From assembly GCA_963666285.1 (NCBI GenBank), contig OY762711.1: 64,000 nucleotides of DNA. One strand, given 5' to 3'. The notes beneath the pieces are model-generated. The model was given only the letters and a program-made list of their open reading frames with translations. It made no database searches and was not told the origin of the DNA. Of the stretch, positions 17,046 through 27,852 are shown one piece after another (within the stretch, counting starts at the first letter, position 1; every line of letters starts with the position of its first letter). The translations under genes and the position numbers were made by a program. The stretch comes from Sedimentisphaerales bacterium (GTDB taxonomy: Bacteria; Planctomycetota; Phycisphaerae; Sedimentisphaerales; SM23-30).

Positions 17046-17492
17046 CTACGATACCAGTTCCACCTTACCGCCAGCTCCGGCAATCTTCTGCTCTGCCGAA
17101 CGACTGAACTTATTTGCAACCACAGTCAATTTCCTTGTTAGTTCGCCACTTCCCAGTATTTTCACTGGCAAATCTGAACTGCGTATCAAACCGGCTTTTG
17201 AAAGTACTTCAGCATTAATTGTTGCACCTTCATCAAAACGATCTAACTGTGATATATTTACAATTGCATAACGTCTGGCAAAATTAGCATTATTAAATCC
17301 GCGTTTCGGTAAACGACGGAACAGAGGCATCTGTCCACCTTCGCTCACGATTGGCAGATTAGGACCAGCATTGGCCTTCTGTCCTTTGTGACCACGTCCG
17401 GCTGTCTTGCCCAGTCCGCTTCCCTGGCCTCGGCCAAGACGACGACGTGCTTTATGCTTTCCTACCAGCGATGTAATCTCATGATTCATCAT
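17046..17492 (-). CDS. rplO: 50S ribosomal protein uL15
   Basis: GRGQGSGLGKTAGRGHKGQ; EGGQMPLFRRLPKRGF. Confidence 0.99.
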   Translation of the reverse strand: MMNHEITSLVGKHKARRRLGRGQGSGLGKTAGRGHKGQKANAGPNLPIVSEGGQMPLFRRLPKRGFNNANFARRYAIVNISQLDRFDEGATINAEVLSKAGLIRSSDLPVKILGSGELTRKLTVVANKFSRSAEQKIAGAGGKVELVS

Positions 17493-17512
17493 GGCTTGTC
17501 TAATTCCTTAAT

Positions 17513-18016
17513 TTATGCAGATATTGTTACTCCGCGAAGCTTTTCAATGTCTTCACGGCTTTTTAACGACAACAAGGCATTCATGGTAGCCTTTACAACA
17601 TTCCTTGGATTTGTACTTCCGTAAATCTTACTCAGTACATCATGCACTCCGGCAAGCTCCAATACTGGACGAGCTGAACCGCCAGCAATAACACCGGTAC
17701 CTGGGTCTGCTGGGATCAGTACAATTTGGGTTGAGCCGAATCGTCCTGTTACCTGATGCGGAATTGTGTTTCCTTCCAGGTTAACTTTATTTAAGGACTT
17801 ACGACCTTCTTTTATTGCTTTTTCGACTGATGGCGGTACTTCATTTGCTTTTCCATAGCCAAATCCCACCTCGCCGTTACGATTGCCAACAACTACTAGT
17901 GCGGCAAAGCTGAAATTCCTTCCACCTTTTACCACCTTGGAACAGCGAAAAATCTTCACTACCTGTTCTTCAAGGCCTGAGCTGTTTTCTTCAATATTTC
18001 GTGCTGCCTGAGCCAC
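17513..18016 (-). CDS. rpsE: 30S ribosomal protein uS5
   Basis: KVVKGGRNFSFAALVVVG. Confidence 0.99.
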   Translation of the reverse strand: MAQAARNIEENSSGLEEQVVKIFRCSKVVKGGRNFSFAALVVVGNRNGEVGFGYGKANEVPPSVEKAIKEGRKSLNKVNLEGNTIPHQVTGRFGSTQIVLIPADPGTGVIAGGSARPVLELAGVHDVLSKIYGSTNPRNVVKATMNALLSLKSREDIEKLRGVTISA

Positions 18017-22167: not shown

Positions 22168-22869
22168 CTAGTCTCTGTTGCGTCCGCCTCTGCCGCCTTT
22201 GCGTGGAGGCTGTTTTACCGGAACAATCTCTTCGCCGTATTTGCCCAGGTAAACCCAAACCTTAATACCTATGATACCATAAGTACAACGAGCCAGGCTC
22301 AACGCGTAATCTACATTTGCATCCAGAGTCTGTAGCGGAATTGAACCCAGGATCTGAGTTTCACTTCTTGCCAGTTCTGCTCCGCCCAAACGACCTGAAC
22401 AAATGATTTTAACTCCTTTGGCTCCTGATGCCATCGCTGTTTCACATGCCTGCTTCATTACACGGCGGAAAGCTGCTCGACGTTTCAACTGCTCGCCAAT
22501 ATTTTCTCCTATCAGCTGAGCATTCAATTCAGGATTCTTTATCTCTGATACATTTACTGTTACCTTACGGTTGATCAGATCTTCAAGTGCTTCGCGAAGT
22601 TTTTCTATTTCAGCACCCTTTGGGCCAATTACTATACCTGGACGCGATGTATGTAATGTTATACGAACATCATCACGGGTTCTTTCGATTTCTGTCCTGG
22701 CCAGGGCGCCGTAAGGCTGACGACGATTCAATCTATCATCTAGAAACTTACGAATCTTCTGGTCTTCTACGAGGCAAACGCCAAATGCCTGCTTTGGAGC
22801 AAACCAGCGACTCTGCCATCCTAGGGTTATGCCTGTTCTAAAACCAATTGGCGATACTTTTTGACCCAT
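22168..22869 (-). CDS. rpsC: 30S ribosomal protein uS3
   Basis: MGQKVSPIGFR; RPGIVIG; GRLGGAE. Confidence 0.99.
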   Translation of the reverse strand: MGQKVSPIGFRTGITLGWQSRWFAPKQAFGVCLVEDQKIRKFLDDRLNRRQPYGALARTEIERTRDDVRITLHTSRPGIVIGPKGAEIEKLREALEDLINRKVTVNVSEIKNPELNAQLIGENIGEQLKRRAAFRRVMKQACETAMASGAKGVKIICSGRLGGAELARSETQILGSIPLQTLDANVDYALSLARCTYGIIGIKVWVYLGKYGEEIVPVKQPPRKGGRGGRNRD

Positions 22870-22918: not shown

Positions 22919-23491
22919 CTAATCGTTTAAATCTACTGTTATATAAATATGACTTGCCAGTTTTGTAAATGGTACGGCACGACCTCTGTCCTTCGGACGC
23001 CAGCGTCTTGTTCCGCGACGTATGCCCGCCCCATCTACTCGTGACTCACTGATATACAGGTTTGTTATATCAACTTCCTGCTCGTCCGCATTTGCTATCG
23101 CACTCTTTAATACCTGGCTAACATAGTATGCTGCTCTCTTGTTGGTAAACTTCAGAATATCTAGTGCATCCTGAACATTGCGATCGCGAATCATATCAGC
23201 AACTAAACGTACCTTGCGTGGTGCCATCGGGCAGAACTTATGTGTAGCAGACCAGGTCTCTAATGCATCTTTGCCTACGCTTAATGCTGAGGCCAGCTTC
23301 TGAACTTCTTCTGCTTTTGGACGCGGACTATATAAACCGCGTTCCCAGTTCTTTACCTTACCAAGGCACTTCTTAAACTCTCTGGCTTTGAGCTCTGTAT
23401 TTACATTCCCCGGCATCAGTGCTCTTGCTAGAGCATCTATGGTCATTCCGGACTCTTCTCGACAGTATTGTAATTTTTCACCGTTTAGCAT
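22919..23491 (-). CDS. rplV: 50S ribosomal protein uL22 with N-terminal XRE-type HTH fusion
   Basis: Residues ~80-190 are uL22 (PRKVRLVADMIR...LKSAIANA...SHIYITV); residues 1-78 are HTH-like; sits between rpsS and rpsC. Confidence 0.95.
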   Translation of the reverse strand: MLNGEKLQYCREESGMTIDALARALMPGNVNTELKAREFKKCLGKVKNWERGLYSPRPKAEEVQKLASALSVGKDALETWSATHKFCPMAPRKVRLVADMIRDRNVQDALDILKFTNKRAAYYVSQVLKSAIANADEQEVDITNLYISESRVDGAGIRRGTRRWRPKDRGRAVPFTKLASHIYITVDLND

Positions 23492-23560
23492 CAGTGTTTT
23501 CCTAAATCCAGGTTAATAATATATATTACTAAATCCTAAATCATTTTTATATTCAAGCGG

Positions 23561-23833
23561 TTATTTTTTCTTCTTATCTGCTCCATGACCGCGATAGTTG
23601 CGTGTCGGAGAGAATTCACCTAGCTTATGACCTACCATATCTTCGGTCACATATACTTTATGGAACATTCTTCCATTATGAACCATAAAAGTATAACCTA
23701 CAAACTCCGGTACGATTGTACAACGACGTGCCCAGGTCTTTACCGGATCTTTTTTGTTGGTTTCTTCCAACTTCATAACCTTTTTGTACAACTTTTCATC
23801 TACAAAAGGGCCTTTTTTTAATGAACGTGGCAT
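23561..23833 (-). CDS. rpsS: 30S ribosomal protein uS19
   Basis: [23 protein letters not shown]. Confidence 0.99.
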
Positions 23834-23869
23834 AGCCTTTTCCTTTTAATTCCTTTTACGGTTTATCTT

Positions 23870-24721
23870 TTACAGTACCAACTGTCCGTAATGTTTACTC
23901 TTACGTCTACGGATAATATGTTTGTTACTTGCTTTTCGCTTAGCACGGGTCTTGCCGCCCTTAGCATAAAGACCTGTTGGTGAACACGGATGACGACCAC
24001 CATTTGATCGGCCTTCACCACCACCCATTGGATGGCTTACTGGGTTCTGTGCCTTACCGCGAACGTGTGGCCTGCGACCCATGTGGCGTTTACGACCGGC
24101 TTTTCCTATTCTCACCAGCTGGTGATCTGTATTTCCTATCTGACCGATTGTTGCTCGGCATGATGCATGAATCATTCGCATTTCACCGCTTGGCATGATC
24201 AGTGTGATATATTTTTCATCTTTACCGGCAATACGAGCTACTGATCCGGCTGACCGTACCAGTTTGCCGCCCTGCCCTGGATTCAGTTCAATATTATGAA
24301 CTTCCATACCATTCGGTATGTTTTTCAATGGCATGCAGTTTCCTACTTTTGGCTCTACCTTGTCGCCTGACTCGATTGTTTCGCCTACTGTCAGACCTAC
24401 CGGAGCAAGGATATAGCTCTTTTCGCCGTCTGAATATTGCACTAACGCTATATGACAGGTACGGTTTGGATCATATTCAATTCCAATTACTTCTGCTGCC
24501 ATATTATCTTTCAGACGCTTGAAATCTACCATACGGTAAATCTTACGGGCGCCACCACCACGGAAACGGACTGTTGTCTTTCCACTGTGGTTTCGGCCGC
24601 CATGCTTCTTTATACGCTTGACCAGTGTCTTTTCGGGTTTGGTCTTGGTAACTTCTGCGTAATCGTTTACTGAAGCATTTCTTCTACCGGCACTTGTCGG
24701 CTTGTAAACACGAATACCCAT
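23870..24721 (-). CDS. rplB: 50S ribosomal protein uL2
   Basis: [14 protein letters not shown]. Confidence 0.99.
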
Positions 24722-24835
24722 TTATTATCTTTCCTTAATTCTCTATGCCGTTTCAACCCATTAAGAAACAGCCGTTTATCTTTATGGCTTCGCTGTCGTT
24801 TCGACGGCTCAACCTGAGTTCACTACCTGACTTAA

Positions 24836-25114
24836 CTAGAACAAATCTATTCTGCTGTCTGCATCTAATACTACGACAGCTTTTTTCCAGTCGGCCTTGT
24901 GGCCCATTACCCATCCGCGACGGGCTGGCTTGCCCTTGCGTGTCATTGTTCTGACATCTATTACTTTTACACCGTAAATCTCTTCGATAGCCTGCTTGAT
25001 ATCAGTCTTATTGGCTTTCTTGTCTACTTCAAAAATGTAAGCATTCAAGAATGACTGCTGCATTGTACCTTTTTCTGTTATTAACGGTCTTTTTATTACT
25101 TGATACTTGTCCAC
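24836..25114 (-). CDS. rplW: 50S ribosomal protein uL23
   Basis: PLITEK...ANKTDIKQAIE...WKKAVV. Confidence 0.98.
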   Translation of the reverse strand: MDKYQVIKRPLITEKGTMQQSFLNAYIFEVDKKANKTDIKQAIEEIYGVKVIDVRTMTRKGKPARRGWVMGHKADWKKAVVVLDADSRIDLF

Positions 25115-25138
25115 TTAATTAACCTCAGTACAAGGATT

Positions 25139-25774
25139 TTAGTTTTCTGCTTTTACCTGCGGGTTTACCAGGCAATCAAGAGACTTCTTTGTCAAAAGAA
25201 GCTTACGTTTGTTAACGATATCGCCTGCATTTAACTGGTCAACTTCCATAACATCTACTTTATTGATATTACGTATTGACTTGTATACATTTACATCATA
25301 ATCGTCGATTGCTACCAAACAGCTGCGGTCGATCTTTAGATTTTTCAGAATCAATGCAAACTCTTTGGTCTTGGGTGCTGTAAATTCTATCTTGTCAATT
25401 ACCATCAGGTCTTCTGCCTTGATCTTTGCCAGAATTGCACTGTTACGTGCCAGGCGACGCTGTTTCTTTGGCATACGCTGTGAAAAATCGCGGGCATACT
25501 TGGCAAACGCTACACCGCCACCACGGCGAACACATGTGCGGTTGTTACCGACTCGAGCTCTACCTGTTCCTTTTTGGCGGTATAGTTTACGGGTTGAACC
25601 CGCTTTCATGCCACGGCTCTTATTCGCAGCTGTACCCTGACGCTTATTTGCATGGTACATAACTATGGCCTGCTTCAAAAGAGCATTACGAACTACTGTA
25701 CCTAATGCAGCCGGATCTATCTGAACTTTTTCTAGTTCCTGGCCTTCTTTATTATATACTGGTAACTCTATCAT
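25139..25774 (-). CDS. rplD: 50S ribosomal protein uL4
   Basis: RQGT...QKGTGRARVG...GGGVAF. Confidence 0.99.
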   Translation of the reverse strand: MIELPVYNKEGQELEKVQIDPAALGTVVRNALLKQAIVMYHANKRQGTAANKSRGMKAGSTRKLYRQKGTGRARVGNNRTCVRRGGGVAFAKYARDFSQRMPKKQRRLARNSAILAKIKAEDLMVIDKIEFTAPKTKEFALILKNLKIDRSCLVAIDDYDVNVYKSIRNINKVDVMEVDQLNAGDIVNKRKLLLTKKSLDCLVNPQVKAEN

Positions 25775-25795
25775 TTTTTCGCCTTACTATTCAGC

Positions 25796-26437
25796 CTAGT
25801 TCTTAAACTTAGCTTTCTTAACCATTACGTAACCGTTATTTGGGCCTGCTACAGCACCTTTAACAATTATCAGATTATTTTCTGTGTCTATTCCCATTAC
25901 TTTAAGATTCTTGGTGGTGCAACGCTCGTGACCCATATGACCGGCCATCTTTTTACCTTTTCGGATACCGCGACTGCAACCGGCACTTCCACTGTTTGAA
26001 CCGATACCACCTGGATGACGGTGCTTACGTTCACAACCATGTGTGGCGTCCATACCCTTAAAGTGATGACGTTTCATTACACCGGCGGTACCTTTTCCTT
26101 TGGTGGTGCCGATTACGTCAACGAAATTAATTTCTTCAAATATCTCTACTGTCAGCTGCTGACCTAACTCTACTTCTGCCGGACTATCAATACGATCTTC
26201 ACGTACAAAATATTTTGGAGCTGTTTCTGCTTTAGCTGCATGACCTACTGCAGGTTTCTTGCGACGGTTTTCTTTTACGTCGTTAAAACCTATCTGTACG
26301 GCATTATAACCATCTGACTCTTCTGTCTTGACCTGCATTACAGAACAAGGACCAGCCTGAATCAGGGTAACAGGTACTGACTTACCCCCTTCATCATACA
26401 TTCTGGTCATGCCGACTTTTTTTCCTAAAAGCATCAT
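25796..26437 (-). CDS. rplC: 50S ribosomal protein uL3
   Basis: GKKVGMT; DGYNAVQIG; KGKKMAGHMG. Confidence 0.99.
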   Translation of the reverse strand: MMLLGKKVGMTRMYDEGGKSVPVTLIQAGPCSVMQVKTEESDGYNAVQIGFNDVKENRRKKPAVGHAAKAETAPKYFVREDRIDSPAEVELGQQLTVEIFEEINFVDVIGTTKGKGTAGVMKRHHFKGMDATHGCERKHRHPGGIGSNSGSAGCSRGIRKGKKMAGHMGHERCTTKNLKVMGIDTENNLIIVKGAVAGPNNGYVMVKKAKFKN

Positions 26438-26539
26438 AGTTAATACTTCCTGTTATTTTCTAAAAATTTAACGTTCTGTTTATTTGCAAAGTTACGATCT
26501 GTTTAACGAGCAGTTGATCCTTTTCGACCAACTGAATTA

Positions 26540-26848
26540 TCACACACGTATCTTTACAAAAACACCCGCAGGTACAACAAGCCGATTCAAGGCTTCTACT
26601 GTATGCGGGTTGGCGTTGTAAATATCTATCAATCTCTTGTGGGTTCTCATTTCGAACTGTTCGCGAGATTTCTTGTCAATATGCGGCGAACGTAGCACGG
26701 TGTATCTTTCAATACGTGTAGGCAACGGTACTGGACCACTGACTTTTGCGTTGGTACGTAGTGCTTGCTCAACGATCTCTTTTGCCGAGGCATCCAGGGC
26801 TTTATGATCGTACGCTTCCATTCTGATTCTAATTTTTTCGGCTTCCAC
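26540..26848 (-). CDS. rpsJ: 30S ribosomal protein uS10
   Basis: GPVPLPT...[14 protein letters not shown]. Confidence 0.99.
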
Positions 26849-26929
26849 TAAGCCAACTCCGTCTTATTTTAATGGTTTATATTGTCTTAGCGCCTGCATA
26901 CACTGCAAGCATATTGCGATAGACCCGTA

Positions 26930-26958
26930 ATTGTAACGTTCTATGACAATTCTGTCAA
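26930..26958 (-). promoter_or_regulatory. Sigma70-type promoter P2 of the S10 operon
   Basis: Minus strand TTGACA-17 nt-TACAAT with an AT-rich upstream tract. Confidence 0.75.
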
Positions 26959-27154
26959 CTAAAACAAAAAACAAAAATAATTTATAATTAGCAACTTGAA
27001 GCTTACGCGGGGGAAATAGTGAAGGAATAAAGAGTTATGTACCGATAACTTTATCTGATAAAGTTCGTCCTCTCGGCACTCTCTTGTCTAACCTACACTT
27101 CACGCGAAAATCCTGTGTCCAGAATATCTCCGCTCGCTTCAGTTGAGACGGGAC

Positions 27155-27183
27155 ATTATATGTGCTTATTCTTGTACCGTCAA
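27155..27183 (-). promoter_or_regulatory. Sigma70-type promoter P1 upstream of the S10 operon
   Basis: Minus strand TTGACG-17 nt-TATAAT preceded by a T-rich UP-like element. Confidence 0.8.
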
Positions 27184-27245
27184 TAAAAAAATAAAAAAAA
27201 TGATCCCGAAAAGAATTATTCTGCTATATTGCCTTTAAAATAGTA

Positions 27246-27279
27246 AAGCAGACTGTAGTAAATACAGCCTGCTTTTTTT
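27246..27279. terminator. Terminator downstream of cheW (possibly bidirectional)
   Basis: AAAGCAG(A)CTGTA-gtaaa-TACAG(C)CTGCTTTTTTT. Confidence 0.6.
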
Positions 27280-27360
27280 GCAACTAATTAGAAATAAGAG
27301 AGTTAAAGTAAAATTACTTATTACGTCTCTTCCTGACCGTCCCGGCCCTTATCGGCTTTC

Positions 27361-27852
27361 TTAAAATCCGGATAACTGGGTACCTGCCAGTACCTGGTCG
27401 ATATCCAGCAATATCTTGACATTATCGCCTACTTTTCCCATCCCAAGAATATAATCTGTATTTACCTGGTTGCCAAACTCAGGTGATGGCTCTATCTGCT
27501 CTTCCTGGATATCCAGAACTTCAGATACATTATCCACAATTATACCAACCTGAACACTGCTTCCGTCGAGATCAACCTCAACTACTATAATACAGGTTTG
27601 TTCTGTTACCTCTTTTTCTTCCATACTGAAGCGACTGCGTAAATCTATTATTGGTATTACCTGGCCACGCAGATTGATCACACCTTTCACCTCTGACGGT
27701 GTCTGTGGGACACTTGTAATATCCTGATAACCGATTATTTCTTTTACTTTCAGTATTTCCAGCCCAAATTCTTCCTGGCCTAATGCAAAAGTTAAATATA
27801 AGCCAGATTTTGCTCGTGAGCCGCGACTTTCAATGTTTGTTGTTCCTGACAT
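27361..27852 (-). CDS. cheW: Chemotaxis adaptor CheW
   Basis: YLTFALGQEEFGLEILKVKEII; KGVINLRGQVIPIIDL; GIIVDNVSEV. Confidence 0.95.
   Translation of the reverse strand: MSGTTNIESRGSRAKSGLYLTFALGQEEFGLEILKVKEIIGYQDITSVPQTPSEVKGVINLRGQVIPIIDLRSRFSMEEKEVTEQTCIIVVEVDLDGSSVQVGIIVDNVSEVLDIQEEQIEPSPEFGNQVNTDYILGMGKVGDNVKILLDIDQVLAGTQLSGF

Follow-up and report, generated by a model that had tools for sequence, protein, structure and literature searches.

In the S10 operon of a Sedimentisphaerales bacterium, the gene in the position of rplV encodes a protein in which ribosomal protein uL22 is preceded by what resembles the DNA-binding domain of an XRE/Cro-type regulator. This raises the question of whether the fusion is genuine and, if so, what an HTH (helix-turn-helix) domain of regulator type would be doing on the ribosome. 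A first-pass annotation of the window (the whole stretch of DNA that was analysed, 64,000 nucleotides) had proposed a uL22–HTH fusion of 190 residues with an XRE pattern in its first 78 or so, and both proposals are borne out by matches to the Ribosomal_L22 and HTH_3 profiles, by modelling and by structural searches. All ribosomes contain uL22, and where the protein is extended the addition is usually a short tail; in this case an entire domain of regulator type has become fixed across one order and a second, separate branch, at what would be the surface where nascent-chain enzymes dock. The fusion would thus be an instance, in bacteria, of the core ribosome having taken up a DNA-binding fold. 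The features of the gene and its immediate surroundings are as follows.

22919..23491, minus strand: rplV, encoding the HTH–uL22 fusion of 190 residues (open reading frame, translation, profile matches)
23261..23491, minus strand: XRE/Cro-type five-helix domain, residues 1-77 (profile, model, structural search)
23369..23416, minus strand: region of the 14-residue insertion between helices 2 and 3, approximately residues 26-41, which lengthens helix 3 (model, spacing)
23345..23350, minus strand: N48-W49, where conservation within the domain peaks (65 of 66 and 66 of 66 orthologues)
22922..23260, minus strand: uL22 core, residues 78-190 (fold superposition)
23012..23020, minus strand: three-residue insertion in the uL22 tunnel hairpin, approximately residues 158-160 (sequence comparison)
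23561..23833, minus strand: rpsS (uS19), the upstream neighbour of rplV (translation)
22168..22869, minus strand: rpsC (uS3), the downstream neighbour of rplV (translation)
23500..23503, minus strand: AGGA, a Shine-Dalgarno-like word 8 nt ahead of the rplV ATG (sequence)

The two neighbours, which we take to be rpsS and rpsC from the usual gene order and from their sequences, enclose no open reading frame of at least 55 residues other than rplV, in agreement with the annotation. Translation would begin at the ATG, and a Shine-Dalgarno-like word precedes 43 of 56 genes from the order and all 10 from the second branch. The annotation was also correct in finding no ATG at the usual uL22 start, the codons for residues 78-80 not being of start type. 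A conserved internal start can be rejected, as a start-type codon lies within three codons of W80 in only 22 of 66 orthologous genes and the window has none. A profile of the uL22 core finds a single match in the six-frame translation of the genome, and the fused rplV is therefore its only uL22 gene. Codon adaptation is not discriminating (0.61 for the HTH domain, 0.61-0.78 for ribosomal genes and 0.50-0.76 for other genes). Assembly artefact and chance read-through are ruled out by 66 in-frame orthologues and by a scan of GTDB contigs, in which domain and core share one open reading frame in 80 of the best 80 loci listed. A contig of run X1 is identical across 22979-27400 and is possibly the source sample itself. 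Short database matches to the domain are fragments of the fusion; PF27520 is listed for one fragment, P0271. The fusion is real and conserved, and it is apparently undescribed: no published account of it or of the S10 leader considered below was found in literature searches whose coverage excludes most subscription papers, and the available portions of PMC13338714 and PMC7797042 do not mention the fusion.

The uL22 core shares its fold, operon position and single copy with ordinary bacterial uL22 (PF00237, TIGR01044). The Pfam family Ribosomal_L22 (PF00237) covers residues 82-186 with 98.5 bits (cut-off 28), TIGR01044 scores 93.1 bits (cut-off 73.65) on the rplV product, and the core model superposes on an ordinary uL22 with Z 19.1 and an rmsd of 1.8 Å over 109 aligned residues. 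Residue 78 of the fusion falls on residue 1 of ordinary uL22, so that in the model, which has a pLDDT of 91.7 and a pTM of 0.82 for all 190 residues, the HTH domain is joined to the core with no linker. What ordinary uL22 lacks is the 77-residue folded front domain and the three-residue insertion in the tunnel hairpin. The latter is specific to the order (56 of 56 sequences versus none of 10 from the second branch) and could alter tunnel geometry or macrolide sensitivity. PRK12279 (NF008917), a fusion of L22 to an unknown domain, likewise combines uL22 with an extra domain, but there the extra part is C-terminal; the window protein matches NF008917 in its uL22 part alone (model positions 11-107 of 311, 48.6 bits, cut-off 526). 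In family f12 (L075-L079, L091), uL22 has basic C-terminal tails of 25-55 residues in place of the HTH domain.

A model of residues 1-79, a check that the annotation had suggested, gives an HTH fold of five helices with a pLDDT of 90.7. In a wide structural search (VIA) its best match is C.Csp231I (Z 10.1, rmsd 1.4 Å, 66 aligned), followed by BswR, SinR, C.AhdI, ImmR, P22 c2 and CapH; by title, the 44 best rows are XRE/lambda-repressor-like HTH proteins with the exception of rank 38, a mitoribosome chain without a name. Foldseek returns XRE-type domains exclusively, but none at E up to 0.001, and a search of the ESM Atlas yielded no usable match for the domain. Since middling Z values are common among helical models in VIA, two independent checks matter. 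One is the HTH_3 match of an insertion-free orthologue from genome G020, which scores 40.2 bits over positions 4-55 of 55. The other is the covariation of R11 and E50, which rank second among the covarying pairs of 258 sequences and are presumably the buried Arg (helix 1)–Glu (helix 3) pair of XRE/Cro HTH domains. For the window protein, HTH_3 scores 24.6-25 bits (cut-off 23) on the N-terminal part alone, a partial match over positions 27-51 of 55, and the profile matches 20 of 26 orthologues at E up to 0.01. The insertion of about 14 residues that the annotation had placed in the turn is reflected in the spacing from L21 to N48, which is 27 residues in the window protein versus 13 in the G020 orthologue. 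Across the 66 orthologues the turn between helices 2 and 3 holds 0-15 extra residues, seven in 49 of them. As a separate observation, chain Lj of PDB 9g6k, from the large subunit of the Toxoplasma mitoribosome, matches the domain model with Z 7.3 and an rmsd of 3.3 Å; no account of this chain was found in the literature search.

The domain thus has in common with XRE/Cro regulators (C.Csp231I, BswR, SinR, ImmR, CapH) the five-helix fold (Z 9-10), the HTH_3 match and the covarying R11-E50 pair, but differs from them in being fused to a ribosomal protein, in its turn insertion, in the variability of its base-reading positions and in that no operator was found for it. Besides N48 and W49, the 66 orthologues mostly keep G52, P56, D62 and the core leucines. 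R11 and E50 occur together in the window protein and in 18 of the 66, always both or neither, and are lost in the other 48; they are kept in 18 of 24 members of the window's own family. Base-reading positions, placed by the numbering of the 434 repressor, vary among orthologues with the sole exception of N48, which occupies a base-contacting position of XRE repressors. None of the 66 has Gln at the start of helix 2, one has Gln five residues before N48, a position otherwise mixed, and helix 3 starts with V, L, R, T, S, K or A followed by S or A. In XRE relatives that stand alone, TQ and polar residues are for the most part retained at the base-reading positions, and some of these proteins also have turn insertions. 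DNA binding by the domain is therefore possible, given N48 at a base-contacting position and the stand-alone XRE proteins with turn insertions. The net charge is positive in 57 of the 66 domains and neutral or acidic in nine. Among the best 80 second-branch loci listed it is positive in all 80, and hardly any variation is seen in the loop that follows helix 3 (G in 71, D in 70, H in 70, P in 80, R in 69, C in 71 and K or R in 76).

The survey of relatives that the annotation had also suggested found the fusion to be general in two groups. The first is the order itself, named Sedimentisphaerales from the source labels, of which cultured members exist; the second, comprising families f19 and f27, belongs to the Phycisphaerales according to record titles. 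Among 40 relatives from eight families of the order, 39 match, with open frames of 182-211 residues, the sole miss being a genome that is 70% complete. A profile of the domain alone matched 63 of 301 genomes of the class: the window's own genome and 45 of 46 others in the order (the missing one has no uL22 match either), 13 of 13 in f19, 3 of 3 in f27 and 1 of 238 in the 17 other families. The exception, G323, has an ordinary uL22 and, on a 3.4-kb contig (L071, G323:C360:1-3000), an order-type HTH–uL22 copy, which is probably a mis-binned contig. Among the non-carriers in those 17 families, G301 is marked as unpublished, and nothing concluded here depends on it alone. The domain was in frame with uL22 in all 10 of the 16 f19 and f27 genomes that were read, and it was found neither in 20 non-carriers chosen for long open frames nor in the second G323 copy. 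In a sample of the phylum 14 of 301 genomes matched, all of them from the order or f19. Of the best 80 GTDB loci listed, 59 are assigned to Phycisphaerales, and the best 120 database matches bear the source names Sedimentisphaerales, Phycisphaerae or Planctomycetota. Each genome has one domain match, always in the rplV frame where read. Stand-alone copies of the domain were not found in the 301 class genomes, save for one weak match (E 7e-5), and a stand-alone partner gene is absent from the non-carriers searched with a profile of both branches.

Two carrier branches which do not form one clade nevertheless share a domain of one origin. In a tree of concatenated uL2 (C-terminal half), uS19, uL22 core and uS3, computed on 39 of 54 rows after near-duplicates and long outgroups (15) were omitted, the order is one supported clade, and f19 and f27 fall in another together with the non-carriers f15, f21 and f26. 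A constraint that unites the 17 carriers fails the AU test (p 5.9e-73, three changes). A domain profile built from the second branch alone gives 57 order-type domains 21-72 bits and 38 unrelated XRE-like proteins at most 30, with one exception at 62 bits that is a truncated fusion; these scores point to a single origin of the domains in both branches. The second branch, furthermore, keeps a non-order uL22 core, without the three-residue hairpin insertion. Taken together, a single domain origin, separate branches and a non-order core imply either that the domain is ancestral and was cleanly lost several times, or that its coding segment alone, part of an essential ribosomal gene, was transferred. 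A domain tree of 72 columns is indifferent between nesting and sisterhood of the branches (AU p 0.45). The donors were probably small XRE proteins encoded on their own, whose starts are similar and whose turns contain short insertions. The ratio dN/dS of 0.03-0.24 for the domain and 0-0.09 for the core, from 10 pairs above 84% identity of which three share genomes, indicates that the domain is under purifying selection. It evolves faster than the core, with mean identities of 39-47% versus 62-77% over the 66 orthologues.

What, then, does the domain do? The reading that we consider likeliest, with an even chance of being right, is that it forms a permanent rRNA-binding appendage on the ribosome surface at the tunnel exit. 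A small stand-alone XRE regulator gene would have joined the 5' end of rplV in a single fusion event. With the fused protein as the only uL22 and no conserved internal start, every large subunit would carry the domain. Judging from other ribosomes, it should continue the first uL22 strand onto the solvent side, at the tunnel-exit rim and close to 23S helices H24, H25 and H47. There it would no longer read a DNA operator but may hold the rRNA backbone by the last part of helix 3 and the basic loop that follows, acting as a lineage-specific surface clamp comparable to the shorter extensions that uL22 has at its N-terminus in Porphyromonas and Deinococcus. It may also narrow the groove where peptide deformylase and methionine aminopeptidase (MetAP) dock.

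Three sets of published observations make an rRNA-binding clamp at the exit rim the simplest reading. According to PMC12123416, uL22 has its N-terminus on the surface of the large subunit, close to the tunnel exit, and in P. gingivalis an N-terminal uL22 helix of 17 residues on the 50S surface is inserted between H25 and H47. The extended uL22 proteins of Porphyromonas gingivalis, Deinococcus radiodurans and Flavobacterium likewise place extra N-terminal residues on the 50S surface (the same paper), although these are tails of approximately 17-20 residues and not a globular, regulator-derived domain; the Deinococcus and P. gingivalis extensions align, as ranges only, into model residues 38-77. 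Secondly, deformylase and MetAP anchor at L22/L32, with a deformylase helix between H24 and H47 (bioRxiv 10.1101/312850). Thirdly, EDF1, whose HTH is of XRE type, is able to bind rRNA, its HTH being lodged at the channel through which mRNA enters, between 18S helices h16 and h33 (PMC7486125).

The annotation had drawn an analogy with MBF1/EDF1, which holds for the fold and not for the position. Both are Cro/C1-type HTH domains, that of EDF1 contacting rRNA (PMC7486125), and EDF1 chains match the domain with Z 6.9-7.2, below the bacterial XRE proteins. MBF1/EDF1, however, is a separate, conditionally recruited small-subunit factor of archaea and eukaryotes with an N-terminal domain of its own, whereas here the HTH begins at residue 1, is fused to uL22 and is preceded by no MBF1 or zinc-ribbon domain; the uL22 tether would put it on the large subunit, unlike EDF1. 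Since the EDF1 site is at mRNA entry and the uL22 N-terminus is near the tunnel exit, the proposed collision sensing and coupling are unsupported. As to the suggestion of a ribosome-tethered nucleic-acid-binding module, the fold, the fusion and its conservation stand, whilst its function as a module is best regarded as the likeliest reading. Among 31 23S rRNA sequences no carrier-linked change rises above controls: three columns separate 16 carriers from 15 non-carriers, as against 5-21 in four control groupings, and the length of H25 varies alike in both. Replacement of a lost ribosomal protein can be rejected, as bL17 and bL32 are present in 4 of 4 carriers tested and bL20 and bL21 in 3 of 3. 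Covariation between the HTH domain and the core is weak.

A weaker and unlikely alternative to the rRNA appendage is that surplus free uL22 would bind through its HTH domain to the S10 promoter DNA, or to RNA made from it, and shut the operon. The region concerned contains the following features.

26540..26848, minus strand: rpsJ (uS10), the first gene of the operon (open reading frame, translation)
27155..27183, minus strand: upstream promoter P1, sigma-70-like, with 11 of 12 consensus matches (same position in 30 of 30 order loci)
27082..27148, minus strand: structured RNA motif immediately following P1, in which two stems flank a conserved internal loop (alignment, model)
26930..26958, minus strand: promoter P2, sigma-70-like, lying downstream of the RNA motif and ahead of rpsJ (P2-like sites occur in 16 of 30 order loci)

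The fold gives autoregulation some appeal, the closest solved structures being repressors and controller proteins, as do the near-invariance of N48 and the retention of R11-E50 in the window's own family. So does the RNA motif, which is present in 29 of 30 order loci (28 aligned, L099 by model; L103 is degenerate), 214-492 nt upstream of rpsJ (loci L095-L124, L262, L263). It has invariant GCGAGC, GCG and GT blocks and 89% of cells paired, and 11 of the 13 pairs have changed on both sides, more than in shuffled or slid controls, for a structure that was derived from the very sequences scored. Rfam contains no match to it, three 23S loci give at best E 0.28, and it is not 6S RNA, the 6S match lying elsewhere in the genome. 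A search with the RNA model hits 19 of 20 order genomes and 1 of 123 other genomes, weakly and on a different contig. It finds nothing in 15 non-carrier S10 regions, nor in 7 f19 genomes and 77 second-branch loci (74 plus 3 from f27), all of which carry the domain, although a diverged leader in the second branch could escape the model. The RNA motif thus tracks the order and not the domain.

Autoregulation is accordingly possible for the order, but leaves the second branch unexplained. The motif could be bound by any protein of the operon, the usual S10 regulator being uL4, and P2 would bypass it in the 16 loci that have such a site. For regulation at the DNA level, as the annotation had suggested, there is no support: the base-reading positions vary and no common palindrome surrounds the S10 promoter. 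One is present in 4 of 64 second-branch loci versus 3-5 in shuffles, and the excess in the order (9-11 of 30) stems from AT-rich codons at the end of fusA. Independently of the fusion, the RNA motif is a candidate for a new S10 leader family or a small RNA.

A combined reading is rather improbable. Here the ribosome-bound domain would guard the deformylase/MetAP groove, free surplus would bind the RNA after P1 or promoter DNA, and the module would have moved between orders by recombination into the resident rplV. If true, it would link assembly to operon expression in one polypeptide.

More doubtful still is a protein-docking platform, by which the domain would recruit or exclude nascent-chain factors, or join two ribosomes, through contacts with protein instead of RNA. 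The deformylase/MetAP anchor does adjoin the place where the uL22 N-terminus emerges (bioRxiv 10.1101/312850; PMC12123416). However, deformylase, present in 4 of 4 carriers tested, shows no visible carrier-specific change, its C-termini resembling each other in carriers and the one non-carrier read, trigger factor is present (3 of 3), and the conserved surface is basic, a better fit to nucleic acid.

We give little credence to an entrenched passenger, a domain without activity of its own that is kept as translation start and for packing against the uL22 core. Its faster evolution, its absence from 237 of 238 other genomes of the class, most of which lives without it, and the lack of an rRNA signature would all be expected of a passenger, but the near-invariant surface loop in the best 80 second-branch loci listed and the retained basic charge would not; nor has any genome read lost the domain, even though a start-type codon is available close to the former start in 22 of 66 genes. 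A non-specific DNA tether holding ribosomes at the nucleoid or at transcribed genes is the least probable, for although the HTH fold, basic charge and retained backbone-contact elements suit non-specific DNA as well as RNA, the fold is the sole observation in its favour and the exit face of the ribosome points away from the mRNA channel.

Several further observations concern the operon and its proteins. In two Phycisphaerales-side loci, L234 and L235, one from a carrier and one from a non-carrier, bL17 has an internal insertion of approximately 35-50 residues and a long acidic tail. In the window rpmD (uL30) is missing between rpsE and rplO (17046-17513), and PF00327 (uL30) matched none of five class genomes searched, carriers and non-carriers alike. 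Upstream of rpsJ in the window (region 26849-27852) lies a gene that its sequence suggests is cheW-like, whereas the end of fusA lies upstream of the S10 locus in 20 of 29 other order loci. A second conserved paired block lies between the RNA motif and rpsJ in 11 of 30 order loci (L095-L124), the window not among them, with 5 of 6 loci in f6, 3 of 3 in f2 and 3 of 4 in f7. In G262 a gene for SRP RNA (L100 1016-1113, minus strand) stands head to head with the operon, just upstream of the S10 promoter.
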